Source of the DNA: a virus
Taxonomy: Duplodnaviria; Heunggongvirae; Uroviricota; Caudoviricetes
Length of the DNA stretch: 13,572 bases
Virus record (IMG/VR): IMGVR_UViG_2671181050_000011
Strand: one strand, 5' to 3'
Position 1 is the first letter of the stretch; each line of letters begins with the position of its first letter. Shown piece by piece: positions 1-13,572 of this stretch. The notes below the pieces were generated by a model. The model was not told the DNA's origin and did not search any database. It saw only the letters and a list, made by a program, of their open reading frames with translations. The position numbers were made by a program, and so were the translations under genes.

Positions 1-102
1 AGGCGGAATATATGCGTCACCTTCACCAATAAATTCATTAGTTCCGGCCAGCAGATTATAAATTTTTATGGTCCGTGGTTGTTCACTCATTCTGAATGCC
101 AT
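1..102 (-). CDS. tfa: tail fibre assembly protein Tfa, 5' end only (first 34 codons; CDS continues beyond the window start)
   Basis: Reverse-complement translation from ATG at 102..100 gives [34 protein letters not shown], which matches the N-terminus of lambdoid Tfa proteins as I recall them. The ATG overlaps the stop of the upstream tail-fibre ORF (TAATG), the usual stf-tfa coupling. Confidence 0.8.
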
Positions 103-410
103 TACGCAAGCCTCACAATATAGTTAAATGCGATGTTTTTGACGGTGTTTTCCGCGTTACCAGCAGCGTTAACGGTGATGGTATGTCCATGTGAACCAAT
201 CGCAACGGAGTGCGTATGAGCACCAATACCGACAGTATGTGCGTGTGCACCTGCGCTTGCAGCAGTACCCGATACAGAGTGCGTATGAGCGCCTGCAGAA
301 GAAGTGTTAACACTGTATTTAGAATAATCAGGTGATCCACTTCCCGGAGCACCACTGGAACCACCTGAAACAAATGTCATCGAATGGGTATGTGCACCGG
401 CTGTCCCCAT
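102..410 (-). pseudogene. stf: side tail fibre protein (Stf-like), C-terminal ~100 codons only; remnant joined out of frame to truncated J
   Basis: The minus-strand frame ends ...[22 protein letters not shown] and carries five His-x-His motifs (AHTHS x3, AHAHT, SHGHT), typical of the C-terminal domain of T4 gp37 / lambdoid side tail fibres. No tail-fibre N-terminus is present; upstream of about 405 the J-homologous frame takes over. Confidence 0.65.
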
Positions 411-2427
411 GCATTTACCGCCCGGACTGTCAGCCTGTAATTTCCCAGCGCCAGCTGCGTGAAGCGATATGTGGTTTCCGTCGTCCGGGCCGTGCTGACC
501 AACCGCTCACTGCCGTCGTCCGCTGCCACGGTCAGGCGAAGCATAAAGCTCACCCCCTTCACCACCTTCGGCGTGTCCCAGCGCGCCAGCACCTGGTATT
601 CCCCGCTGTCTGCGGTGACTTCTGCGGTCAGGTGCTGAACTGCTGGCGGCGTGACACCATTCACCGTGCCGCTCTGGTCACCGTCAAAGTGCGCCCCGTT
701 ATCCACGATGGCTTCTTTCTCCGGTACATGCTGCACGGCAGCTTCAGCCCCCACACGCTGTACTCGGCAACGCCGTCAGGAACCCGGCTCACTTTCACCT
801 TCACGCCGTCGGTGACGGACTGGACCTCCACGCTCACCGGATTACCCTGCCCGTCAACCAGGCTTATCAGCGTGGTGCCGGAGGATGGCAGCGTGATTTC
901 ACGGTCGAGCGTCAGTGTCCGCGTCTGGCTGTTCACCGCCAGCACGCGCCCGCCGATGCTGATCCCCGCATAGTCATCATCACAGATTTCAATGACATCA
1001 CCTGGTACATGGCGAAGCCCTTCGGCACCCACGCTGAAGTCCACGGTCTGCGTTTCCAGCAGTTCCGTTTTAATCAGCCACAGCCCGGCTCGGTGCGCCT
1101 GCCCCCGCCTGGTACAGCCAAAGGCATCCATCTTCGTGACGTTACGACCGTAACGGGCAATGGCCTGCGTGTCCTCCACAAGCTCTGTCGCCGTCTCCCA
1201 GCCGTTATCCGGGTCAATCCAGTTCACCTCAACGGCATTATGGCGGTCCTTCAGGGCGCTGAAGCTGTAGCGGAACGGCGCGCCATCATCCGGCATCACC
1301 ACATTACTGCGGTTATAGGTCCACACCTTATCTGATGGTCGGTCCTGCACGAACGTCAGCGTCTGCCCGTTCCATACCGGCATACAGCGCATCGCCGAGC
1401 AGAAATCACTGAGAACATCCCACGCCTTACGCTGTGTGGTCAGCCAGGCATTACAGGTGATGCGCGGCTCCGTGCCGCCAAAACCGTCTGGCACCGACTG
1501 GTCGCAACACTGGCCGATGACATACAGCGCCCATTTATCCACATCTGCCGCACCAAGACGTTTACCCATGCCGTAGCGCGGGTGGGTCAGCATATCCCAC
1601 AGACACCAGGCCATGTTGTTGCTGTATGCTGGCTTAAACGTTCCGTCCCAGATACCGCTGTATTGCCGCGTCTGCGGGTTATAGTTCGACGGCACCTGCA
1701 GAATACGCCCGCGAAGATGATAATTACGGCTCACCTGCTGGCTGCCGAACTGCTCCGAATCCACCTGTACGCCGACCAGTGCCGTGTTCGGGTAGCACTG
1801 TTTCACATCGATGATTTCGGTGTATGACGACCAGAGCGTTTTGTTCTGCAGCTGGTCTGTGGTGCTGTCCGGCGTCATCCTGCGCATCCGGATGTTGAAC
1901 GGGCGCGGCGGCAGATTATCCACCACTACCGAGGCCAGATACTGCGAGGTGGTTTTGCCCTTAATGGTGATGTCTTTTTCCGTCACCCAGCCACCGTTAC
2001 GTTGTATCTGAACCAGCAGGCGAACTTCCGACGGATTCCTGTCCCCCTTTGAGGTGGTTTCCACCAGTGCCTGCACACCGAAGGTAAAGCGCAGACGGTC
2101 GATGTTTGCAGACGTAATGGTGCGGGTGATCGGCGTGTCATATTTCACTTCCGTACCCAGCACCGTCTCGGAGCCGGAGGATTCAAACCCCTCCGGCGGT
2201 GTCTGCTCCTGCTCACCGGCACGGAACACCACCGTGACACCGGAGATGTTGGTATTCCCCTCAGTGTCCAGCACCGGCGTACTGTTCAGCAGCACGCTTT
2301 TTAATCCATCCACCGGACCTTCAACCGGCCCTTCGCTGATGGCATCGATCACACTCAGCAACTGCGTGGACTTCAGGTTGTCCTTCGCTTCGCGCGGGGT
2401 ATGCCCCTTACTGCTTCCTTTACCCAT
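377..2427 (-). pseudogene. J: tail tip / host specificity protein J, N-terminal ~690 of ~1130 codons, disrupted by an internal frameshifting deletion and truncated at a junction with stf
   Basis: ORF 2427..661 starts MGKGSSKGHTPREAKDNLKSTQLLSVIDAISEGP..., near-identical to the lambda gpJ N-terminus as recalled. J similarity then continues in a different frame (754..377: AVQHVPEKEAIVDNGAHFDG...RAVNAWGQ) and stops at about 401. ATG at 2427..2425; 60-nt gap after I as in lambda. Confidence 0.88.
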
Positions 2428-2487
2428 TCCTCACGCTCCATAAACGACAAAACCGCCCGGAGGCGGTTTCACATAAAACATTTTGCA

Positions 2488-3135
2488 TCAGCGACCAATC
2501 ACCACAACCTGACCACCGTCCCCTTCGTCTGCCGTGCTGATCTCCTGAGAAGCCACCCGCGACCCCACGCGCATTTCACCGTACAGAACAGGCAGAACAT
2601 TGCCCTGGGCAACCATGTTATCCAGTGAGGAGAAATAGGTGTTCTGCTTACCGTTATCCGTTGTCTGTGTACGGGGAGTTCTGGCTTTCGGTGCCAGCAT
2701 CTGCGCCACACCGCCAAGGATCATACTGGCCCCCGCAGCATACATGCCCGATAAAGCCGCAGCTCCCAGCCAGCCTGCAGGGTTCCACCACGCCACTGCA
2801 ATCAGCGCCGCACCCAGCACCGCCTGAAACACACCGCCACTTTTTGCTCCCGCAAGACGCGGAACGATGTGGATCACGGCACCATTTTTCAGCGGCTCAT
2901 TAAGACGGGCTGATAATTCGTTTTCGCCTGCATCACGCCCGGCAATGCGCACCTGATACCAGCCCTCATTCAGTTTCTGACGAAACGCCGGGAGCTGTGT
3001 GACCAGTGCCCGGATGGCTTCAGCCCCCGTTTTCACACGAAGGTCGATGCGGCGGCCAAATCGTTGCAAATCCCCGTAAAGGCAGATGCGTGCCATGCCC
3101 GGTGACGCCAGAGGGAGTGTGTGCGTCGCTGCCAT
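2488..3135 (-). CDS. I: tail assembly protein I
   Basis: 215-aa ORF MAATHTLPLASPGMARICLYGDLQRFGRRIDLRVKTGAEAIRAL...GDGGQVVVIGR, very similar to lambda gpI as recalled. ATG at 3135..3133. Its 5' end overlaps K by 103 nt, as in lambda. Confidence 0.9.
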   Translation of the reverse strand: MAATHTLPLASPGMARICLYGDLQRFGRRIDLRVKTGAEAIRALVTQLPAFRQKLNEGWYQVRIAGRDAGENELSARLNEPLKNGAVIHIVPRLAGAKSGGVFQAVLGAALIAVAWWNPAGWLGAAALSGMYAAGASMILGGVAQMLAPKARTPRTQTTDNGKQNTYFSSLDNMVAQGNVLPVLYGEMRVGSRVASQEISTADEGDGGQVVVIGR

Positions 3136-3776
3136 TTGTCGGTGTACCTCTCTCGTTTACTCAGTTGTTCAGGAATATGGTGCAGCAGCTCGCCGTCGCC
3201 ACAGTAAATGGCGGCATGATTCGGCACCGATGAACCAAAACAGCACAGCAGCACGTCGCCAGGCTGCGCCTCTGTCAGTGGGACACGGTAAAAACCCGTT
3301 GCCTCCATATTGTCAAGATAGAGATTCTGGCCGTGACGCCACCAGTCATCCCCGCGATGAAAATCCGGCATCTCAATTCCCGCCAGATGGTAAGCGTCCC
3401 GGAACAGCGTGTAACAGTCCGTCACCCCGTGCTCAAAGCGCCACCCGGTGAGATGCGGCACACAGAGGAATTTATGAATCGCCCCCCGGCAGACCAGCCA
3501 CCACGGCAAATCACTCTGCACCTGCAGCCGCCGGTCGGCCTCACTCAGCCAGGGCAGACCACCGGGGTGGCTGTGGACCAGCGCCACAATCTCTCCCTGC
3601 ATTTCTGCACTCAGCCAGTCCTCCGGCGACATCCGGAAATACTCCTCCGGCTCACCGGAGATATTCACGCAGGGAAAATATCTTTCTCCCTCCGGCGTTC
3701 TCACCACGAAGCCGCACGACTCTGCTGGCGCACATCGCCGGGCGTGCGCCAGAATCGCTGATTCTGTCTCTGTCAT
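3033..3776 (-). CDS. K: tail assembly protein K (JAB/MPN-type HSHP motif plus NlpC/P60-like C-terminal region)
   Basis: 247-aa ORF MTETESAILAHARRCAPAESCGFVV...ALVHSHPGG..., lambda gpK-like. ATG at 3776..3774, 5 nt after the L stop; the lambda L-K-I-J spacing is conserved. Confidence 0.9.
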   Translation of the reverse strand: MTETESAILAHARRCAPAESCGFVVRTPEGERYFPCVNISGEPEEYFRMSPEDWLSAEMQGEIVALVHSHPGGLPWLSEADRRLQVQSDLPWWLVCRGAIHKFLCVPHLTGWRFEHGVTDCYTLFRDAYHLAGIEMPDFHRGDDWWRHGQNLYLDNMEATGFYRVPLTEAQPGDVLLCCFGSSVPNHAAIYCGDGELLHHIPEQLSKRERYTDKWQRRTHSLWRHRAWHASAFTGICNDLAAASTFV

Positions 3777-3781
3777 GGGAT

Positions 3782-4480
3782 TTACTGCGAAAGTTTGTTA
3801 ATGGAAAGGAAGCCGCCAAAGTTGCCGACGTTATTGCGAAACTTACAGCCGCTCAGGCATTTGCTGCATTTATCCTTCGTGATATCGGACGTCGGCTGGT
3901 CATATTCATCCGCGACAGCCGGACCGTGATAACCGCACTCATCACCGCGATAGGTCCAGGTGCAGGTATTAGCCAGCATGATGCGCCCCGGAAAAACGGC
4001 ACCATCCGTTTCCGTCGGTGTGGAGAGCACAAAGGAGGCACTGACCGCGCTCAGTTCGCTGCACTGCTCGATGCGCCAGCGGCTGATCACCTCCTGCTCC
4101 GGATCGGCGTCACTGTTTCCGTTGACGAAGTTCACCGCATCCAGAAAACGGGCGTAAACCTTACGCCGGACCACCGTTCCGCCGACCAGACTCTGCAGAT
4201 CTTCCGCCATCCCGGTGACCATACCGTACAGGTTAGAAACCGTCAGCGTGGGGCGCGTACTGGTGCCTTTGCCATTCAGTTCAAAACCACTCCCCTGAAT
4301 GGGATACGGCTGATACTGTCGCCCCTGCCAGGTGACCGGCTCACCTTTTTCGTTCTGCTCATTACAGAAAAAATAACGTTCTCCACCAACCTCTGTCAGG
4401 TCGATTTCCCAGAGCACCACGCTGGCCGACTGCTCCGCACGGGTGCATTCATTCAGTGTTTCCTGCCGGATAACCAACAC
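3782..4480 (-). CDS. L: minor tail protein L (Cys-rich C-terminus), but native ATG start replaced by a deletion junction; frame now opens with GTG-TTG
   Basis: 232-codon ORF ...IRQETLNECTRAEQSASVVLWEIDLTEVGGERYFFCNEQ...GGFLSINKLSQ matches lambda gpL from codon 4 onward. The first codons read GTG TTG GTT where lambda has ATG CAG GAT, and no ribosome-binding site is evident upstream. Confidence 0.8.
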   Translation of the reverse strand: MLVIRQETLNECTRAEQSASVVLWEIDLTEVGGERYFFCNEQNEKGEPVTWQGRQYQPYPIQGSGFELNGKGTSTRPTLTVSNLYGMVTGMAEDLQSLVGGTVVRRKVYARFLDAVNFVNGNSDADPEQEVISRWRIEQCSELSAVSASFVLSTPTETDGAVFPGRIMLANTCTWTYRGDECGYHGPAVADEYDQPTSDITKDKCSKCLSGCKFRNNVGNFGGFLSINKLSQ

Positions 4481-4715
4481 GGGCAGACTTCACCACATTC
4501 ACCTCGCGGATGTAGTCGCTGCCCATCGCATTCATGATGGCCCGCTGAAAGGGCAGTGTTTCCCAGCGCCCTTCCTGGTATGCGGATTCTTTCGGGAGAT
4601 AGTAATTGGCATCCGCCCATTCAACGGCGGTCTGTGGCTCCGGCCTGAACAGTGAGCGAAGCCCGGCGCGGACAAAATGCCGCAGCCTGTTAACCTGACT
4701 GTTCGATATATTCAC
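4449..4715 (-). pseudogene. A: terminase large subunit A, N-terminal ~80 codons only, fused out of frame into the start of L
   Basis: GTG-initiated frame MNISNSQVNRLRHFVRAGLRSLFRPEPQTAVEWADANYYLPKESAYQEGRWETLPFQRAIMNAMGSDYIREVNVVKSARVGY matches the lambda gpA N-terminus as recalled, then diverges (PAGNTE*). It overlaps the Nu1 stop by 26 nt, as in lambda. Confidence 0.85.
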
Positions 4716-5235
4716 TCAGCAACCCCGGTATCAGTTCATCCAGCGCGGCTGCTTTGTTCATGGCTTTGATGATATCCCGTTTCAGGAAATCAACATGTCG
4801 GTTTTCCAGTTCCGGAAAACGCCGCTGCACCGACAGGGGGATCCCGTCGAGAATACTGGCAATTTCACCTGCGATCCGCGACAGCACGAAAGTACAGAAT
4901 GCGGTTTCCACCACTTCAGCGGAGTCTCTGGCATTTTTCAGCTCCTGTGCGTCGGCCTGCGCACGCGTAAGTCGATGGCGTTCGTACTCAATAGTCCCTG
5001 GCTGGAGATCTGTCTCGCTGGCCTGCCGCAGTTCTTCAACTTCCCGGCGCAGCTTTTCGTTCTCAATTTCAGCATCCCTTTCGGCATACCATTTTATGAC
5101 GGCGGCAGAATCATAAAGCACCTCATTACCCTTGCCACCGCCTCGCAGAACGGGCATTCCCTGTTCCTGCCAGTTCTGAATGGTACGGATACTCGCACCG
5201 AAAATGTCAGCCAGCTGCTTTTTGTTGACTTCCAT
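4690..5235 (-). CDS. nohA: terminase small subunit Nu1 (cosB-binding, winged-HTH N-terminus)
   Basis: 181-aa ORF MEVNKKQLADIFGASIRTIQNWQEQGMPVLRGGGKGNEVLYDSAAVIKWYAERD...LSEYIEQSG, essentially lambda Nu1 as recalled. ATG at 5235..5233, at the expected distance from the cos end. Confidence 0.92.
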   Translation of the reverse strand: MEVNKKQLADIFGASIRTIQNWQEQGMPVLRGGGKGNEVLYDSAAVIKWYAERDAEIENEKLRREVEELRQASETDLQPGTIEYERHRLTRAQADAQELKNARDSAEVVETAFCTFVLSRIAGEIASILDGIPLSVQRRFPELENRHVDFLKRDIIKAMNKAAALDELIPGLLSEYIEQSG

Positions 5236-5412
5236 TGTTCATTCCACGGACAAAAACAGAGAAAGGAAACGACAAAGGCCAAAAAGCCCGCTTTCAGCAC
5301 CTGTCGTTTCCTTTCTTTTCAGGGGGTATTTTAAATAAAAACATTAAGTTACGACGAAGAAGAACGGAAACACCTTAAACCGGAAAATTTTCATAAATAG
5401 CGAAAACCCGCG
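5236..5412 (-). promoter_or_regulatory. cosB-equivalent region (terminase/IHF binding sites between cosN and Nu1)
   Basis: The reverse complement is near-identical to the first ~190 nt of the lambda genome as I recall it (GGGCGGCGACCTCGCGGGTTTTCGCTATTTATGAAAATTTTCCGGTTTAAGG...). Individual R and I1 sites were not mapped. Confidence 0.6.
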
Positions 5413-5424
5413 AGGTCGCCGCCC
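5413..5424 (-). other. cosN: 12-nt cohesive-end sequence (minus strand GGGCGGCGACCT)
   Basis: The plus strand reads aggtcgccgccc; the reverse complement is GGGCGGCGACCT. It is flanked on one side by cgtaacctgtcggatcacc (reverse complement of the lambda right end ...GGTGATCCGACAGGTTACG), so both cos halves are contiguous as in an integrated or circularised genome. Confidence 0.85.
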
Positions 5425-5623
5425 CGTAACCTGTCGGATCACCGGAAAGGACCCGTAAAGTGATAATGATTATCATCTACATATCACAACGTGCGTGGAG
5501 GCCATCAAACCACGTCAAATAATCAATTATGACGCAGGTATCGTATTAATTGATCTGCATCAACTTAACGTAAAAACAACTTCAGACAATACAAATCAGC
5601 GACACTGAATACGGGGCAACCTC
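5425..5623 (-). other. lambda right-end non-coding region containing cosQ
   Basis: The reverse complement matches the terminal ~200 nt of lambda as recalled (...GATGATAATCATTATCACTTTACGGGTCCTTTCCGGTGATCCGACAGGTTACG). The exact cosQ element was not delimited. Confidence 0.6.
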
Positions 5624-5857
5624 ATGTCAACGAAGAACAGAACCCGCAGAACAACAACCCGCAACATCCGCTTTCCTAACCAAATGATTGAACAAATTAA
5701 CATCGCTCTTGAGCAAAAAGGGTCCGGGAATTTCTCAGCCTGGGTCATTGAAGCCTGCCGCCGGAGACTGTGCTCAGAAAAAAGAGTTTCTTCTGAAGCA
5801 AACAAAGAAAAGAGTGACATTACTGAATTGCTCAGAAAACAGGTCAGACCAGATTGA
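5624..5857 (+). CDS. ynfO: small basic protein with a possible ribbon-helix-helix-like N-terminal region (YnfO-like)
   Basis: 77-aa ORF MSTKNRTRRTTTRNIRFPNQMIEQINIALEQKGSGNFSAWVIEACRRRL..., ATG at 5624 with a weak GGGG Shine-Dalgarno 7 nt upstream. Position and orientation match K-12 Qin ynfO. The fold assignment is inference. Confidence 0.7.
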   Translation: MSTKNRTRRTTTRNIRFPNQMIEQINIALEQKGSGNFSAWVIEACRRRLCSEKRVSSEANKEKSDITELLRKQVRPD

Positions 5858-5914
5858 AGCAATTTAGATAATCGTGCAGACTACGCCCCCTCATATCACA
5901 TGGAAGGTTTATCT

Positions 5915-6325
5915 ATGGATCAGGTAGTCATTTTTAAACAAATATTTGATAAAGTTCGAAACGATTTAAACTATCAATGGTTTTATTCTGAGCTAAAACG
6001 TCACAATGTCTCACATTACATTTACTATTTAGCCACAGAGAATGTTCATATTGTATTAAAAAATGATAATACAGTGTTATTAAAGGGCCTAAAAAACATT
6101 GTGTCTGTCAAATTTTCAAAGGATAGGCATCTTATAGAAACGACCTCTAATAAGCTGAAATCCAGAGAGATCACATTTCAGGAATACAGAAGAAACCTTG
6201 CTAAAGCAGGAGTTTTTCGGTGGGTTACAAATATCCACGAACAAAAAAGATATTACTATACCTTTGATAATTCATTACTATTTACTGAAAGCATCCAGAA
6301 AACTACACAGATCTTACCACGCTAA
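5915..6325 (+). CDS. ydfO: uncharacterised prophage protein (YdfO-like, DUF1398 family as recalled)
   Basis: ORF 5900..6325; preferred start is the ATG at 5915 ([32 protein letters not shown]...), which has GGAAGG 7 nt upstream and gives 136 aa. AT-rich codon usage, unlike the tail genes. Confidence 0.75.
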
Positions 6326-6333
6326 ACCATAAC

Positions 6334-6362
6334 GTCCGGCTTCTCTCACTCCTGAGCCGGAC
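6334..6362. other. GC-rich inverted repeat (8-bp stem GTCCGGCT / AGCCGGAC, 13-nt loop) just after ydfO
   Basis: Perfect 8-bp inverted repeat seen directly. There is no clear U-tract, so its role (terminator, RNA stability element or protein site) is unresolved. Confidence 0.3.
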
Positions 6363-6476
6363 TGCATTGGTTTAATAAAAACCATCAACAATTGTGATTT
6401 AGATATTCGGAACCATTCAAATATAACAAAACCCCGTAAAAACGAGGTTTATGGATAAATTTTATTATTGAATACA

Positions 6477-6649
6477 TCAGATTAAATTAATCTTGACATC
6501 ATAGCTTTCAAGACCCGTCATTTTTTCCCGTGCGGTAAACTGAATACTGGTAACTTCTTTCCCGGTCTTTTTCTTAAGTTCAATAATTTTTTTGTTATAT
6601 ATTCAGAAATATCTGCTTCTGCTTTTGTTTTTAAGTTTTCAATATTCAT
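6477..6649 (-). pseudogene. gnsB: GnsB-like small protein gene interrupted by a 1-nt frameshift in an A7 homopolymer
   Basis: From ATG 6649 (AAGAGGA just upstream) the frame reads MNIENLKTKAEADISEYITKK, then shifts. The continuation IIELKKKTGKEVTSIQFTAREKMTGLESYDVKINLI* lies in the +1 frame after the A-run at 6587..6593. Both halves resemble GnsA/GnsB (MNIEELKKQAETEIADFIAQKIAELNKNTGKEVSEIRFTAREKMTGLESYDVKIKIM, from memory). Confidence 0.7.
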
Positions 6650-6820
6650 CATTTCCTCTTTTAGTCTGTTATGACTTTCCAGTTACACAGTAAGTCGATT
6701 ATATGGTGCAAACGTGTAAAAGATAAGATGAAACATCGCAATAATCAACATACGATAGTCTAAATTTTACACAAACAGACAAAGAGAATTTTCCTGAATT
6801 ATCAATGCAATAGCATCAAA

Positions 6821-7051
6821 TCAACTCAAGAGCCTTATTGCTGCTTCCAGAATTTCTTCTGAAGTAACATGTCGATCCGCGGCTACATAAATGACTTTAT
6901 GATCTCCGGTCAGAGATGGAAACCCTGCGGCCATTACAGTAAGGTGTGTTTTTTCGCCATTTGGATATTCACGCATGATGGTGTTAACTCCAGTCATCGC
7001 TGGCACTACCACTGCTGGTTCAGAGTTAAAAAAAACTATGATTTTTTTCAT
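6821..7051 (-). CDS. ynfN: small uncharacterised protein (YnfN-like by position)
   Basis: ORF 6821..7093; preferred start is ATG 7051 (MKKIIVFFNSEPAVVVPAMTGVNTIMREYPNGEKTH..., 76 aa). No convincing Shine-Dalgarno, so the start is uncertain. Position matches ynfN in K-12 Qin gene order. Confidence 0.55.
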   Translation of the reverse strand: MKKIIVFFNSEPAVVVPAMTGVNTIMREYPNGEKTHLTVMAAGFPSLTGDHKVIYVAADRHVTSEEILEAAIRLLS

Positions 7052-7095
7052 GATGTTACCGTAGTATGTGAGTATCCATCGAATAGACACCAAGC

Positions 7096-7117
7096 AAAAA
7101 AGCTCCCGAAGGAGCCT
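7096..7117 (-). terminator. candidate intrinsic terminator downstream of cspI (minus-strand orientation)
   Basis: Hairpin GCTCC-cgaa-GGAGC (7102..7115); on the minus strand the stem is followed by TTTTTTGCTT. Confidence 0.45.
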
Positions 7118-7322
7118 TCATTTTCACTTTTTTAAATCCAACGACAGACGGCTGGCATTTAAGTATTGTGAAATATTATCAAATGTAATCATCATTGATT
7201 TACAAAAGATACATTTTGCCCCGAAAGGATTCATGTCAGAAACATCAAAAGATGATGTTCTATACTGGGAACCATGACAACACGGGCATCTAAAGTGAAT
7301 ATGGTTTGTAATATTGTCTACC

Positions 7323-7535
7323 TCAAAGCGCCACTACATGAACAGCGGCAGGACCTTTAGGTCCGTTCTCAATACCAAATTCAACTTCCTGATTCTCAGT
7401 TAATGTTTTGAAATCGTTGCTCTGAATTGCTGAGAAATGGACAAACACATCTTTGCTGCCATCTTTCGGCGTGATGAAACCAAAACCTTTTTCAGGGTTA
7501 AACCATTTCACTAAACCAGTCATTTTGTTAGACAT
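7323..7535 (-). CDS. cspI: cold-shock protein, CspA family (CspI-like)
   Basis: 70-aa [73 protein letters not shown] with RNP1-like (KGFGFI) and RNP2-like (VFVHF) motifs. ATG at 7535 preceded by AAAGGTAATAATT, resembling the cspA translation initiation region. Confidence 0.9.
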
Positions 7536-7898
7536 AATTATTACCTTTTGAAGAAATTAGCCCTTGGGCAGAATGGTCCGAAAAAAAAATATCAGAGAGA
7601 AAAACCAACAAGGAAATCTCAAGAGGTACAAATAATAAAATTATAACAATGACTGCTTCAGATAAATTTGTAACAAACCAGAACACCATTAACGCATGAT
7701 TAACCACCCATAGCAAGGATTACTTTTGTAAAGAAAAACACAGCAATGAAAGAATAGCTTTATTTATTAATAAAACGTGTCATTCTGATTAAGACCTTTT
7801 ATCTTACCCTTAAGATTTCAGGAATTTTGGCTCATGGAAGAGTCCTTTTTATTTAAATTTTACATTCCGCGATGTAAATGTTCCGATTTAATATTACC

Positions 7899-8922
<1,024 letters not shown>

Positions 8923-8926
<4 letters not shown>

Positions 8927-9234
8927 AGATATTTATGATGAGGACGCTCGTGCTTATTGGCAGGATTTTCAATCTTAAAGGAGTACTGATGCTGCAGATA
9001 AGACTCAACTTTTTCTGACAATTTTTCTGCTACTTCCAGGAAGACTTGCCGGACGCTCCTTCTGGCTGCTGCCTCATAAAACTCCAGCGCAGCTCCTTCA
9101 ACACGGTCCATGGCGACATCCAGGTCAAAAATTTCACCGTCAAAGCGTTCTTTGTCCTGTAAGGCTACAGTTACCGTAACTTTATTCTCAAAATTACGGA
9201 CTCCTTTCACAACCAGTTCATAGTCTTGAGTCAT
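8923..9234 (-). CDS. ydfR: uncharacterised protein between holin and endolysin (YdfR-like, DUF1327 as recalled)
   Basis: 103-aa ORF MTQDYELVVKGVRNFENKVTVTVALQDKERFDGEIFDLDVAMDRVEGAALEFYEAAARR.... ATG at 9234, 4 nt after the holin stop; its stop overlaps the endolysin start. Confidence 0.7.
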
Positions 9235-9238
9235 TGGA

Positions 9239-9454
9239 TTACTCTCCTCTCGCAGCCTTACGCCTGTCTTCTTTAATCTTGAAATAAAGATTTGTCAGAT
9301 ACGTCAGCAGGCCAAAAACCAGGCTACCCAGCACACCGATTGCAGCCCACTGTGACGGAGTTACTTTATCGAGTAACTGCAATGCCCAGAAACCAGCATT
9401 ACCCGCCGATGTGCCATAGGCAACACCTGTTGTTAACTTATCCATTGATTTCAT
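9239..9454 (-). CDS. essQ: class II holin / pinholin (phage 21 S-like) with dual-start motif
   Basis: From ATG 9454: [71 protein letters not shown] (71 aa), two transmembrane segments and a charged C-terminus. Met1-Lys-Ser-Met4 gives the holin/antiholin dual start; GAGGA lies just upstream. Confidence 0.85.
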
Positions 9455-9673
9455 ATCCTCACCCCGATGTACACGGATGGTGCAATATGTTTGAAAAGAT
9501 CGGAGTCTACGGGGTAGTTTTGACAGCACACGTTGTTCTCAACGGCGCTAAAAAAACATACACATTAAAAATGTGGGTAATTATTTTGAAAGAAAGTCAT
9601 ATATAAAATAATAATACGAGAAATGTTTTCATATTTAGTGTACTGTATACGGCCATTTATACAGGAAAAGCCT

Positions 9674-9844
9674 ATGTCAGAACGTAAAAACTCAAAATCA
9701 CGCCGTAATTATCTCGTTAAATGTTCCTGCCCAAACTGCACCCAAGAGTCAGAACACAGTTTTTCAAGAGTACAAAAAGGTGCCCTTTTGATCTGCCCTC
9801 ATTGCAACAAAGTATTCCAGACAAATCTTAAAGCTGTAGCCTGA
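9674..9844 (+). CDS. small zinc-ribbon protein (CxxC ... CxxC), possibly the Qin small protein YnfU
   Basis: ATG at 9674 with AGGA 7 nt upstream: MSERKNSKSRRNYLVKCSCPNCTQESEHSFSRVQKGALLICPHCNKVFQTNLKAVA (56 aa). Two Cys pairs are spaced as in a zinc ribbon. The ynfU name is a guess from memory. Confidence 0.55.
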   Translation: MSERKNSKSRRNYLVKCSCPNCTQESEHSFSRVQKGALLICPHCNKVFQTNLKAVA

Positions 9845-9907
9845 TTGATTTTATTAGTAACAAGTATTTTTTATATTTTAATAATATATTTAAAGCAGAT
9901 AATAAAA

Positions 9908-9926
9908 AACCCGCCTGAGCGGGTTT
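9908..9926 (-). terminator. candidate intrinsic terminator (7-bp stem AACCCGC / GCGGGTT, loop CTGA), strongest in minus-strand orientation
   Basis: On the minus strand the stem is followed by TTTTTTATTAT. It lies ~280 nt downstream of the cspB stop and upstream of the lysis cassette. Confidence 0.5.
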
Positions 9927-10207
9927 GAGATTGTGGTGCTTTTTGTGGGAGTCATCCACTTACGCACTTTGTTTTGCCATGCCAGCAGTTAGCTTCTGCT
10001 GTAAAACTATTCATGCAGCAAACCTGCACTTCACCACAATGGTTAGCATACTTTTCCTGATTAAGATTTTGCCAAATATGCTAGCCATTGTTTCATGTAT
10101 TGGACCTCCTTACTTTTTATTAAAGAGATCCAATATTCACTACTCTGTCCGTATCTCTACTCAGGCATCAGCCTTCTTCGTTATCGTATACAGACGAGCG
10201 ATGAATT

Positions 10208-10423
10208 TTAATCAGTAATGATGACATTTGCTGCTGCAGGACCTTTAGCACCACTCTCTATAGAGAAGGTAACCTTTTGACCTTCAAATAAGGTTCGATA
10301 ATTATCATTCTGAATCGCAGAAAAATGCACAAACACATCTTTACTACCATCAACAGGAGAAATAAAGCCGAAACCTTTATCAGCGTTAAACCATTTTACT
10401 AAACCAGTCATTTTATTTGACAT
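10208..10423 (-). CDS. cspB: cold-shock protein, CspA family (CspB-like)
   Basis: 71-aa [77 protein letters not shown] at 10423 with AAGGA 7 nt upstream. Divergent from cspF, as in K-12 Qin. Confidence 0.9.
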
Positions 10424-10723
10424 TCTACATTCCTTAACTTGAGCCTTTCGGCATAAATGGTTTGCATAACAGAAACGACTTCGTACTTAATTGGAGAGAC
10501 TCAAAGAAGGAATAAGTGAATAACACCTGAAATGAGAACTGCTTTAGTAAACTACTTCGTATATCGTCTGTTCTTCAAACCGACGCAATCATTAACGCAT
10601 AGTTGAACATATGAAGCAATGTTTATTTTAGACATCCAGCCATCTTCAACCCCATCAAAAAACTATAGCTTTCTTCAGGAACGTGTGTATAGTGTGCCAA
10701 GTTATCAGTATTAAGGAATTTTT

Positions 10724-10936
10724 TTGTCCCGTAAAATGACAGGAATTGTCAAAACCTTTGACGGCAAAAGCGGCAAGGGTCTTATCACCCCATCCGATGG
10801 TCGTATCGATGTCCAGCTTCATGTTTCAGCGCTCAATCTCCGCGATGCAGAAGAAATTACCACCGGATTACGCGTGGAATTTTGCCGGATAAATGGTCTG
10901 CGTGGCCCTTCAGCTGCCAATGTTTACCTTTCATGA
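10724..10936 (+). CDS. cspF: CspA-family paralogue lacking the aromatic RNP motifs (CspF/CspH-like), apparent TTG start
   Basis: [70 protein letters not shown]. Codon 1 is TTG (10724..10726) with AGGA 6 nt upstream; the first ATG (10736) has no Shine-Dalgarno at proper spacing. Confidence 0.85.
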
Positions 10937-10990
10937 GCTATATTAAAGCTTTAATTTCAGGCCCCATCGGATCACACATGGAGAGTTTTT

Positions 10991-11080
10991 ATGAATAACC
11001 CCGTCTGTCTTGATGACTGGTTGATTGGCTTTAAAAGCTTATGCTGTACTTTGGCCGTAATAGCTCTGCTAATAATATAA
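10991..11080 (+). CDS. candidate 29-aa hydrophobic small protein (unannotated-size ORF)
   Basis: GGAGAG 5 nt upstream of the ATG: [29 protein letters not shown]. The C-terminal half is hydrophobic and could span a membrane. Too short for the supplied ORF track. Confidence 0.3.
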
Positions 11081-11230
11081 TAAGCAGACTCATTGTGTTT
11101 AGGGACATTGTACTGGAAGAAAACATTTTAAACATCAGGCAAATAACCAAGTCACCAGCTAAATAATAAGTTAACAGACATGAGTCCCGGGATGAGATTC
11201 AACATTACCATTGCCCCATTTAAAGCACAA

Positions 11231-11248
11231 AACCCGCTCATCAGCGGG
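11231..11248. terminator. bidirectional-looking intrinsic terminator hairpin (7-bp stem ACCCGCT / AGCGGGT, loop CATC)
   Basis: The plus strand has AAAA before and TTTTCTACTTTTTCTT after the stem; the minus strand has TTTGTGCTTT after it. It sits between the Q stop (11358) and cspF, where a lambdoid tR' would be expected. Confidence 0.5.
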
Positions 11249-11286
11249 TTTTCTACTTTTTCTTAACGTCGGGTATACAAAGCCCA

Positions 11287-11315
11287 TCGTTGAAAAAATT
11301 TTATCCATATTTTTT
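11287..11315 (-). promoter_or_regulatory. candidate sigma-70 late promoter (pR'-like) downstream of Q
   Basis: On the minus strand: TTGCAT (11315..11310), 17-nt spacer, TAAAAT (11292..11287). It is ~45-70 nt downstream of the Q stop and upstream of the 11231..11248 hairpin. No qut/pause site was verified. Confidence 0.35.
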
Positions 11316-11357
11316 GAAAAATGCAAACATCATGTCGCCATCTTCAGCAAAAATCAT

Positions 11358-12110
11358 TTATCTCGTCACCTTCCTCAATTGCGCTTCCGCGTATGCTTCT
11401 TCCTGCCAGCACTTTGTTACCAGTTTACCAATGACGTCCGCATACCCCTTATACCACTGATAATCGGTCAGGTCTGGTACCAGCTTCTGGACATGACGTC
11501 GTGCCAGCGTGGTCGGTAAACGACTAAACCGGTTTCCATTACAACGCCCACAAATCTTATATACCGGTACGCCATGAAACCGGGTTCTTTTTTCATCCAG
11601 AACAATCCCTTTACCCTTACACCCTCTGCACGCTGTGCTGGCTTCGCCCTTACCATGGCAATGCTGACATAGTTCCTTCACCCATTCTTCCTTGATTACA
11701 GATTCCCCGCGTCTGTAGTGTTTCACCACTTCGCGCAATACATTATAAAATCCCGTACCTGAACAATGCTCACAGCGAGCCTTACTTGCCGCAGACCTGG
11801 AGTAATCAGCAAAGGCAAAACTCACGAGGTAAGGAATAATCTGTAACCGGATTTCTTCACTCAATTTGTTCAATGTCGGGTTATCCAGTGCCATCGCGTA
11901 ATTTAGCAGGCCTTCAATCGCAAACTGAGGGTCCTGAACACCAACTTTTGCCAGAAATAAGGCCAACCCAAATGGTGCTTTCGACTGCACCATCCTCTGC
12001 GCTGCCATTACATCCGTAATTGTTAAACAACCGGTGCCTGTCGCTGGAGCGTCATCGCTCAATTTTGGAGATTTTGGGGAGTAATATTTTGGTAAGGCTT
12101 CAAGGTTCAT
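11358..12110 (-). CDS. quuQ: late-gene antiterminator Q (Cys-rich, multiple CxxC zinc-binding motifs)
   Basis: ORF 11358..12140; preferred start ATG 12110 (MNLEALPKYYSPKSPK..., 250 aa) with GGAG 7 nt upstream. Motifs CEHCSGTG, CQHCHGKG, CRGCKGKG and CGRCNGN are present. Position is immediately upstream of the lysis region, as for Q. Confidence 0.88.
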   Translation of the reverse strand: MNLEALPKYYSPKSPKLSDDAPATGTGCLTITDVMAAQRMVQSKAPFGLALFLAKVGVQDPQFAIEGLLNYAMALDNPTLNKLSEEIRLQIIPYLVSFAFADYSRSAASKARCEHCSGTGFYNVLREVVKHYRRGESVIKEEWVKELCQHCHGKGEASTACRGCKGKGIVLDEKRTRFHGVPVYKICGRCNGNRFSRLPTTLARRHVQKLVPDLTDYQWYKGYADVIGKLVTKCWQEEAYAEAQLRKVTR

Positions 12111-12123
12111 GCTCGTTCTCCAC

Positions 12124-13173
12124 TTACGCCAGTACGCCAATTGCCAGCGCGCGATCGATAAAACGAAATATCAGCTCCAGTTGGGAGCCATACTTATCTT
12201 CAAATGCCACTGTATCCGTATGCAGCTCGTTGTGATGCTTTCTGCACAAAGGCAACACAAAGAGATCATGTGCTTTTGTTCCCATTCCGCCCTGCCCGTG
12301 ACCAATCAGATGATGCGGATCGTCGGCTGGCATACCGCAGCAAGCACACGGCTGTGTCTTAACCCAACGTGTGTATTTCTCCTTAACCCAGCGGCGACGT
12401 TTAGGCAGCTTCATGAAAGATTCCGGAGACTCTGGATCAACGGTGATGCTTACCACCGTCTTTTCCTGTGGTGATTTTTGTTGCTGGTGGGCGTAAGGCA
12501 ACGGTGCAAGATTTTTTGTGCGTTGTTTCAATATGCTGGTGGCGGTCTGCTCTCCCGGTACGATGTCGCTTTCGCGGTACACCGAGCAGATTTTTTCCGC
12601 TGGTAATCCCAGCGAACGACGCGATACAGCCTCAGGTAGTGCATCCACCACCTGATTGCAGACCGCCCACCAGGATAATTCAGCCAAAGATAATTCCCGC
12701 TCCTGCGTACCGCTTATTGCGTGACGGATGACGTCAATCACCCATGCTGTCAGATTTTGTTGAGCAAGCAGCTCCAGTGATTCCGATGTCTGGTCACGCA
12801 GTTGGTTGTCGCAGTGCCAGCACAACACCATTGCGCCGGTACCATAACGGTGAATGACTGTTTCAGTGTGATGGTAATCGCCATTAGGCCACTGGCAGGA
12901 TGTAACATGACGTAATAGCCAGTCGGACAATGCGCCAACGCCGCCAGCAGCACGAATCACCCGTTCGTTACTAAAAAACGGCAGCAATGTTTTGTCTTCC
13001 GCCAGCGGCTGGCGAACGGCAGGAACGACTCCGGATGGCAGATTACGCATGCTTTTTGGTTCCGGTTCCACCAGCACTCGAGGATTATGAAATATCTGTA
13101 TGGATTCACGGCCCGGCTTAAGGACCACCAGCCCAAGCTCAGGCACCAGAACAGGTCTAAGTAATACCCGCAC
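12124..13173 (-). CDS. ydfU: YdfU-like protein (DUF968 as recalled) with C-terminal HNH-like Cys/His motif
   Basis: ORF 12124..13212; preferred start is GTG 13173 (349 aa), which has GGAGG upstream and abuts the rem stop. C-terminal motif CACCGMPADDPHHLIGHGQGG...LCRKHHNELH. Confidence 0.8.
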   Translation of the reverse strand: MRVLLRPVLVPELGLVVLKPGRESIQIFHNPRVLVEPEPKSMRNLPSGVVPAVRQPLAEDKTLLPFFSNERVIRAAGGVGALSDWLLRHVTSCQWPNGDYHHTETVIHRYGTGAMVLCWHCDNQLRDQTSESLELLAQQNLTAWVIDVIRHAISGTQERELSLAELSWWAVCNQVVDALPEAVSRRSLGLPAEKICSVYRESDIVPGEQTATSILKQRTKNLAPLPYAHQQQKSPQEKTVVSITVDPESPESFMKLPKRRRWVKEKYTRWVKTQPCACCGMPADDPHHLIGHGQGGMGTKAHDLFVLPLCRKHHNELHTDTVAFEDKYGSQLELIFRFIDRALAIGVLA

Positions 13174-13174
13174 G

Positions 13175-13453
13175 TTACCTCCAGATCCGTTGCTGGAAAG
13201 TGCGGGACGCACGTGGTGGGCGTTCGGAATAAGGCAGCCTGACAGAGATTATCCAGTGCCGATAGTCGAGACTGAGAGCTTTCTTAACCTCGAACCCGCG
13301 CCTGCGGTAAGAATGAATCAGCCATTCGGCCTGTTCTGCAGTGCATGGAGGGTGCTGGAACCATTCAGACTTGAATGCGTGAGAATACCGCCCGTGCGTG
13401 CAGGCAAGAACGGGCGAATTATCAGAATTGTAATATTTTGCGTTGCGTGCCAT
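13175..13453 (-). CDS. rem: small uncharacterised prophage protein (Rem-like by position)
   Basis: ORF MARNAKYYNSDNSPVLACTHGRYSHAFKSEWFQHPPCTAEQAEWLIHSYRRRGFEVKK..., ATG at 13453 with GGAG 8 nt upstream. Location 5' of ydfU matches K-12 Qin order. Confidence 0.75.
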   Translation of the reverse strand: MARNAKYYNSDNSPVLACTHGRYSHAFKSEWFQHPPCTAEQAEWLIHSYRRRGFEVKKALSLDYRHWIISVRLPYSERPPRASRTFQQRIWR

Positions 13454-13572
13454 CGGTTTTCTCCGGTGGCACGGTGTTACTCAGCGGGAGTTCAGCCCAT
13501 AAGCGCTAACTTAAGGGTTGAACCATCTGAAGAATGCGACGCCTCGGTGCCTCGTTAAGACGATGCCTCGCG

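Follow-up and report, generated by a model that had tools for sequence, protein, structure and literature searches.

A lambdoid prophage in the 13,572-nucleotide stretch of DNA analysed here (the window) carries a join at which codon 82 of the terminase gene A is fused straight to codon 4 of the tail gene L on the minus strand, and the base at which A ends is also the left end of many other prophage deletions. Taken as a whole, the join is best explained as a true deletion scar made by illegitimate recombination in a Qin-type cryptic lambdoid prophage, to which we give a probability of about 0.9. Demonstrated below are the join with its two parents, the extent of the deletion, the genomes that have it and the identity of the locus. 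The reuse of the left breakpoint, to the base, is the unexpected part of the finding.

The sequences that meet at the join are the following (a slash marks a join throughout):

4470..4715, minus strand: A', the first 246 nt (82 codons) of a lambda-type A, ending GGTTAT (translation, BLAST against lambda)
4449..4469, minus strand: out-of-frame tail of A', six codons reading PAGNTE, in DNA that is L sequence (translation)
4470..4472, minus strand: TAT microhomology common to A (GGTTAT) and L (GGATAT) (BLAST, sequence comparison)
3782..4469, minus strand: tail-tip gene L, from codon 4 to its stop (translation, comparison with lambda)
4475..4480, minus strand: GTG (4480-4478) and TTG (4477-4475), A-derived and in frame with L, the sole candidate starts for L (translation, PGAP start)

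The A-frame open reading frame (4715..4449) is translated as VNISNSQ...VVKSARVGY followed by PAGNTE, with a TGA stop at 4451-4449 on the minus strand. Its first 82 codons are those of lambda gpA, and it is of lambda type in being colinear with lambda A from the start codon and in overlapping the end of nu1. Lambda and PhiR70_1 served as stand-ins for the parental phage. Window 5424-4470 aligns with lambda 1-956 at 98.4% identity and window 4475-736 with lambda 13434-17196 at 92.6%, and the two alignments abut, overlapping on GGTTAT. The gap between them runs from 956 to 13439 in lambda coordinates, and the 12,483 bp absent from the window comprise, by the lambda annotation, the rest of A, then W, B, C/Nu3, D, E, FI, FII, Z, U, V, G, T, H and M, and the first three codons of L. 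A preliminary description, made from the sequence alone, had proposed an out-of-frame deletion join of A to L codon 4 at a TAT microhomology, with a loss of about 12 kb. Pairwise alignment to the lambda A and M/L regions confirms a two-parent join, and together with the translations it upholds the reading frame, the size of the loss and the microhomology (window 4472-4470). The same description had ended A at codon ~80, which was near, the exact last codon being 82; its divergence point of 4473..4480 needs a similarly small shift, the alignment putting divergence at 4470/4469.

The same short sequence is found at both parental sites and in a single copy at the join. With the flanking GG, GGTTAT of A and GGATAT of L match at five of six positions, the perfect part being the 3-bp TAT. 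Under random joining we calculate P of ∼0.05 for 3 bp or more, which is mildly unusual, and the 3-bp microhomology alone is weak evidence of mechanism. Microhomology-mediated joining is nonetheless the mechanism that we infer for the A'/L deletion. In the window sequence A runs directly into L at the join, with neither an insertion sequence nor a recombinase site.

On the terminase side the packaging end of the prophage is retained:

5413..5424, minus strand: cosN cohesive-end sequence GGGCGGCGACCT, upstream of nohA as in lambda (exact match)
4690..5235, minus strand: nohA, an intact homologue of Nu1, the terminase small subunit, 181 aa (translation; annotated in the near-identical locus of strain 1332KP)

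The A stub presumably ends within the deviant Walker A motif K76-SARVGY-S83, the ATP-binding P-loop. This assignment of the A region is consistent with PMC9410871. RefSeq labels A' of strain 1332KP a pseudogene with its C-terminus missing, and the stub can at most keep the Nu1-interacting N-terminus.

By sequence comparison the window is the Qin cryptic prophage, in a less decayed state than that of K-12; the preliminary description recognised neither this nor the broken J nor the recurrence of the A breakpoint. Window 4707-13498 is 99.8% identical to Qin of K-12 MG1655 and has the Qin gene order ydfU-ydfT(Q)-cspF/cspB-ess-ydfR-rrrQ-rzpQ-cspI-gnsB-ydfO-ynfO-nohA, with ynfN also among the matching genes, between gnsB and cspI. 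Rfam cspA thermoregulator matches lie on the minus strand at 7296-7682 and 10192-10584 (112 and 159 bits), overlapping cspI and cspB. The closest complete genome is that of strain 1332KP (99.94% identity). There the join leads into L, K and I, and after these come a truncated J, a tail-fibre remnant, tfaQ, pinQ, ydfK and a truncated ydfJ; ETEC P13-6, which has the same join, likewise has pinQ, ydfK and a truncated ydfJ at its right end. Both relatives are thus placed at ydfJ, the chromosomal site of Qin in K-12. The window is distinct from 1332KP in an extra 73-bp deletion in J and a putative IS186 end at 13499-13572. These last 74 bases of the window, beginning CATAAGCGCTAACTTAAGGGTTG, have no match to Qin of K-12, 1332KP or the ETEC strain, and we take them to be an IS186 end. 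Such an insertion would be lineage-specific and would separate the rem-side hypothetical gene from the remainder of Qin. Qin of K-12 (also Kim; b1544-b1579) is the same prophage and resembles the window from nohA leftwards through ydfU, but only 9 nt of A remain there, joined to stfQ (GAATATA/ACCGCG); K-12 has none of L, K, I and J, and its stretch of stf is longer than that of the window.

L has lost its native ATG, as the preliminary description held, and its overlap with the M stop is gone too. The frame 4480..3782 reads VLV and then IRQETLNECTRAEQ, ending KLSQ before its stop; this is lambda L from codon 4 onward, and 226 of the 229 residues after codon 4 are identical to lambda L. It had also been supposed that L, K, I and J are probably silent in translation unless reinitiated. 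The loss of the ATG speaks for this, but the join provides in-frame GTG and TTG codons and the NCBI pipeline does call L: in RefSeq, PGAP begins a 232-aa L of 1332KP at the GTG equivalent to 4480, and an exact match to this GTG-started protein is recorded from 77 contigs. The only Shine-Dalgarno-like sequence within the usual distance is a weak GGTGAAG, 8–14 nt upstream of the GTG, and in the 25 nt read there is a GAGGTG further upstream (20–25 nt). Translation of A' would end 29 nt downstream of GTG 4480. L is possibly translated from the GTG supplied by the join.

The genes beyond L, and two further scars, are these:

3033..3776, minus strand: tail-tip gene K (C40 peptidase), intact open reading frame (ORF list, 1332KP annotation)
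2488..3135, minus strand: tail assembly gene I, intact open reading frame (ORF list, 1332KP annotation)
399..2427, minus strand: J', remnant of the host-specificity gene J, with the C-terminal ∼430 codons lost (ORF list, alignments)
736..741, minus strand: second scar, a 73-bp deletion in J between 6-bp direct repeats CTGCCG (alignment offsets against 1332KP differ by 73)
102..399, minus strand: third scar, a J'/stf' join near 399, then a short side-tail-fibre remnant (alignments)
∼102 to 1, minus strand: 5' end of tfaQ, inside which the window stops (alignments)

J has lost its C-terminal third, and its frame is broken at 741-736, where the frameshift from the 73-bp deletion brings the reading frame to an end at 661. 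This deletion is absent from 1332KP and the ETEC strain and is particular to the lineage of the window. The J'/stf' join reads GGGGACAGCC/GGTGCACATACCC, and the fibre remnant behind it is ∼200 nt long (102-308). The first 293 nt of the window are 95.6% identical to K-12, as against 99.8% elsewhere, which suggests that the fibre end has a separate history.

Because J is truncated and frameshifted, the phage is dead whether or not L is translated, and with J broken and no head or shaft genes left, the L-K-I-J block is unable to build a tail tip. The locus cannot make particles. The state of J and the loss of the head and shaft genes also make it very improbable that the L-K-I block owes its retention to expression and a benefit for the host, as a domesticated block not awaiting deletion. 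The intact L, K and I frames, the annotated GTG start and the recorded L product would suit such a role, but a further deletion, seen in one of the six complete genomes with the A'/L join and probably shared by four more, has taken away K and I completely, the greater part of L and some of J, and the whole block is missing from other Qin variants.

These six genomes, 1332KP and five pig or farm strains that are mostly ETEC, are the ones with the same join among 5,426 complete E. coli genomes. A seventh high-coverage match, in strain A25 (L007), was rejected as a separate event, A nt 198 being joined just upstream of M; it lies in another lambdoid prophage with M-L-K-I-J intact, and the outcome resembles that of the window's deletion. 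In IMG/VR the A'/L join was found twice (L177 and L180), the alleles of A' and L being different ones in one of the two cases. An exact match to the 88-aa A' product is recorded for 12 contigs, among which are E. coli P12b and a STEC strain. Six independent complete genomes, IMG/VR contigs and draft contigs all show the identical sequence, and the chance that the join is an assembly or chimera artefact is negligible. In ETEC P13-6 a second deletion fuses L codon ∼49 to mid-J at a TC microhomology, and identical partial matches suggest that the other four pig and farm strains share it.

Other strains carry further forms of the same chromosomal locus. In S3, A' (to GGTTA) is joined to stf; in strain 5735 the same A' end is joined within tfaQ; in PigCaeca_2, A nt 168 is joined to stf; and in K-12, A nt 9 is joined to the exact stf base that is used in S3. 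This stf base, /ACCGCGYTGACAGACAATACG, is itself a recurrent right end, joined to A nt 9 (K-12, L003), nt 245 (S3, L006) and nt 170 (IMG/VR L302). Since the K-12 and S3 forms retain ∼760 nt of stf that the window lacks, they are not descended from the window's form, and the Qin lineages of K-12, S3 and the window diverged from a more complete ancestor. The A'/L join of the window most probably arose in a single illegitimate exchange, in which GGTTAT at codon 82 of A was joined to GGATAT near the beginning of L. This removed 12.5 kb, with all of the head genes and the tail-shaft genes. The locus now has cos, an intact nohA, the 82-codon A stub, intact L, K and I frames and a truncated J. Such a form is an intermediate stage of decay, with K-12, in which nohA is joined directly to stfQ, further on.

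A' ends at ...CCCGTGTYGGTTA/ in many prophages and is fused to different DNA in each. At least 13 different right partners share one left base, GGTTA/, at the Y82/S83 codon boundary, and they fall in C, E, L, the end of L, J (two), lom, stf (four), tfaQ and intergenic DNA:

L: the A'/L join of this window
stf, four sites: S3, E32, L138, L176
tfaQ: strain 5735
J, two sites: 38M23, L179
lom: E94
intergenic, upstream of an AraC-type gene: E423
head protease gene C: L175
capsid gene E: L178
end of L, just before K: L181

The undeleted context of every partner was recovered from an intact phage or prophage. Upstream of the join, lambda-type A' is present at 98–100% identity in all 13 junctions, and at all 13 right sites TA directly precedes the join, with a perfect microhomology of 2–5 bp (mean 3.2). 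By our calculation the random chance of at least 2 bp is 0.156, and that of 13 out of 13 is ∼3e-11. Every partner lies downstream and in the same orientation, the cos-nohA side is always kept, and the right ends are spread over more than 25 kb while the left end is fixed. Not all 13 junctions need be independent, as one may have given rise to another; the lom junction could derive from the L type via a 7-bp TATCCGG repeat, and the stf-3 junction from stf-1 via a GTTA repeat. Several scars per prophage are common, and L178 (FII/I) and L181 (I/stf) have further internal deletions beside the hotspot join. A second site in A, CCTTAT/ at nt 308, is reused as well, with tfaD in DLP12 (L011) and with another stf position in L205; it shares the ending TTAT with the main hotspot.

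Since the earliest examples had been picked up through a ranking in which matches extending past the join have the advantage, controls were added. Nu1-anchored loci were sampled from species-representative genomes and metagenomes, and truncations were counted after removal of vector and adapter artefacts. This sample gave 94 intact A genes and natural truncations of A at nt 203, 308, 855, 1146, 1469 and 246, so that nt 246 is one of six classes. Copies of lambda nu1-A were also met in unrelated assemblies (Kitasatospora, Chromatium, Paenibacillus and others; L023-L031, L034, L037, L038, L069 and L154); these foreign copies, some of them fused to a T7 promoter, pUC or an Illumina adapter, are contamination with control DNA or vector. 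Among 119 IMG/VR contigs anchored 50 nt upstream of the nt 246 site, the ∼9 truncation classes had breaks at nt 308, 830, 1167, 1469, 1556, 1558, 1649, 1652 and 1819, and none at nt 246. A spread sample of E. coli gave breaks at nt 308, 246 and 168. The 16 unbiased classes include one coincident pair at nt 245/246 and another at nt 308, where by our calculation ∼0.2 coincidences within 1 nt would be expected (P ∼0.02).

IMG/VR was also scanned by one and the same method at several positions in A, for a conserved 20–27-mer followed by a base other than that of intact A. Seven distinct deletion partners were found at GGTTA(T)/ and none at either of two neutral control positions; nt 170 and nt 308, which were chosen for their known junctions, gave two partners each. 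The 90% cluster of the A' reading frame has 207 members, and most of the 15 that were read are labelled 'partial' and end at residues 79–92. Short-read contigs therefore seem to end frequently right behind A nt 245, which is what the branching of a multi-copy repeat would lead one to expect. Truncations of A are thus common and mostly dispersed, and the hotspot is not dominant; the clustering at nt 245/246 is real but not exclusive.

At least 13 deletions begin on the left at this one base, whereas their right ends differ and have in common only a TA-containing microhomology, and from this we infer that the site in A is intrinsically prone to breakage or strand switching. The deletion process appears one-sided, and the data are best accommodated by a fixed 3' end annealing to microhomologies that contain TA. 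As the end is reused whatever follows it, its determinant should lie in the retained left sequence. What fixes the end is a separate matter, and one tentative answer, on balance doubtful, is a site-specific nick, cleavage or stall just 3' of ...AAGTCTGCCCGTGTYGGTTA. The 3' end so left would prime or ligate at downstream TA microhomologies and erode the prophage rightwards, possibly repeatedly. Candidate agents would be a homing or defence nuclease directed against the P-loop-coding sequence of lambdoid terminases, or a topoisomerase site. Such a break would account for the single left base with 13 variable partners, all downstream and in one orientation, for the terminal TA that always lies within the microhomology, and for reuse that is independent of the right-hand sequence. 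The site stands exactly at the Y82/S83 boundary, before the P-loop Ser/Thr, and a codon boundary at this place is typical of intein and homing-endonuclease targets in terminase genes. Reciprocal junctions, which would keep the right side of the site, were not found in a search that is a partial test, blind to joins that retain the base A at -1. Against a specific break, neither an enzyme nor a recognisable site was found, and the IMG/VR scans and the tail of the E. coli search contained no A allele with an insertion at the site. A protein search likewise returned no intein-type domain among listed proteins of 118–346 aa, a range that is unable to show insertions or 82-codon stubs. A nuclease aimed at the P-loop-coding sequence is an attractive but unsupported speculation.

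Recurrence could also be without mechanistic meaning. One old A'/X junction may have spread by homologous recombination in the cos-nu1-A' arm, and later deletions may have met their best microhomology there, between GGTTAT and GGATAT-like words. According to PMC3945230, cos-nu1-A recombines readily between lambda and defective prophages, and A' differs by ∼1% among Qin variants where its flanks differ by ∼0.3%, which suggests exchange in the arm. Some partners, that of S3 for example, have long imperfect matches to the site (GTCGGTTA against GTCGGGTA, 7/8), and GGATAT-type words recur at other junctions. Homologous exchange, however, cannot make a new right partner, and 13 partners require 13 joins at one base; other TA words in the first 310 nt of A are far less used, nt 308 having two partners and nt 203 and nt 9 one each. 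We regard the spread of an old junction as rather unlikely.

Several other causes were tried and rejected. The five junctions found first suggested an N-CCG-S motif on the right-hand side, but this was an artefact of the ranking and is gone in the wider set. The 13 partners share nothing to the right of the join, where a site-specific recombinase (Int or Pin) would demand a conserved core or half-site. A mosaic homology boundary at GGTTA/, at which strand exchange would stall, is excluded by L170, L171 and L173, which are ∼60% identical to lambda A on both sides of the site, and by 85 of 86 isolated phages, in which lambda-type A spans it. These three are gpA homologues with ∼60% DNA identity and an identical 20-mer, AAGTCTGCCCGTGTYGGTTA, encoding KSARVGY; they were retrieved by that 20-mer, so its identity says nothing about its conservation. 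A hairpin, TTGG-TTATT-CCAA, folds no better than shuffled sequences (z = -0.6 and 0.0). The end of A' lacks the inverted-repeat partner that an IS-like terminus or an IS-mediated adjacent deletion would require, and the nearest Chi lies ∼4 kb away, too far to direct the 3' ends. Interruption of A by an element inserted at the site was dropped on the IMG/VR scans and the tail of the E. coli search, in which none was seen.

The window's join has counterparts among known deletions. In the aaaD pseudogene of DLP12 (K-12, next to nohD) a lambda-type A has likewise lost all but its 5' part, and a TAT microhomology connects it with a gene for tail-fibre assembly (CCTTAT/TCCAGC), although the breakpoint is at A nt 308 rather than 246, and both prophage and partner are different. 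Albertini et al. in 1982 reportedly described deletions by short-homology illegitimate recombination in E. coli, for example in lacI. The window's join is like these in having a few bp of identity at both sites, of which one copy is kept, and no mobile element, but hotspots in lacI-type spectra are set by the repeat pair, whereas the A breakpoint has a constant partner on one side and, on the other, partners spread across more than 25 kb. Integrase-promoted deletions of lambda, anchored at att, are said to have been described by Parkinson and Huskey in 1971. They share with the A breakpoint one invariant end, many variable ends and a weak sequence resemblance; the A breakpoint differs in having no att-like core, no conserved right-partner sequence and no recombinase implicated.

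Vertical decay of defective prophages in enterobacteria was reportedly described by Bobay et al. in 2014. Qin resembles published prophage decay in that the same integrated prophage is found at successive deletion stages in many strains. To our knowledge, the studies of prophage decay by Bobay and by De Paepe and their colleagues have not reported reuse of a breakpoint at the level of the base. It was not found in the available part of the latter (De Paepe et al. 2014; PMC3945230), which does report that defective prophages exchange with infecting phages, and that lambda recombines with Qin and DLP12 through the very homologies that the window retains. Given such recombination, the realistic role of the remnant is that of a reservoir of tail-tip and packaging sequences for infecting phages.

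By itself, the A'/L scar is one more case of the ordinary decay that a well-known cryptic prophage undergoes; it can help to retrace the loss of the Qin structural genes and can serve as a lineage marker. Its interest is raised by the reuse of the breakpoint across prophages, which is documented here. The common picture of prophage inactivation is one of deletions that occur at random and are then sifted by selection. If the reuse reflects a specific break, it offers a testable mechanism for prophage domestication. That the Y82/S83 boundary (...GTCTGCCCGTGTYGGTTA/) is a specific break or stall site driving a one-sided, repeatable deletion of prophage structural genes seems to us rather unlikely; if true, lambdoid prophages would be disarmed in E. 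coli along a defined molecular route that spares cos and nohA, and this would explain why nohA-type remnants with ∼82 codons of A are common in E. coli.
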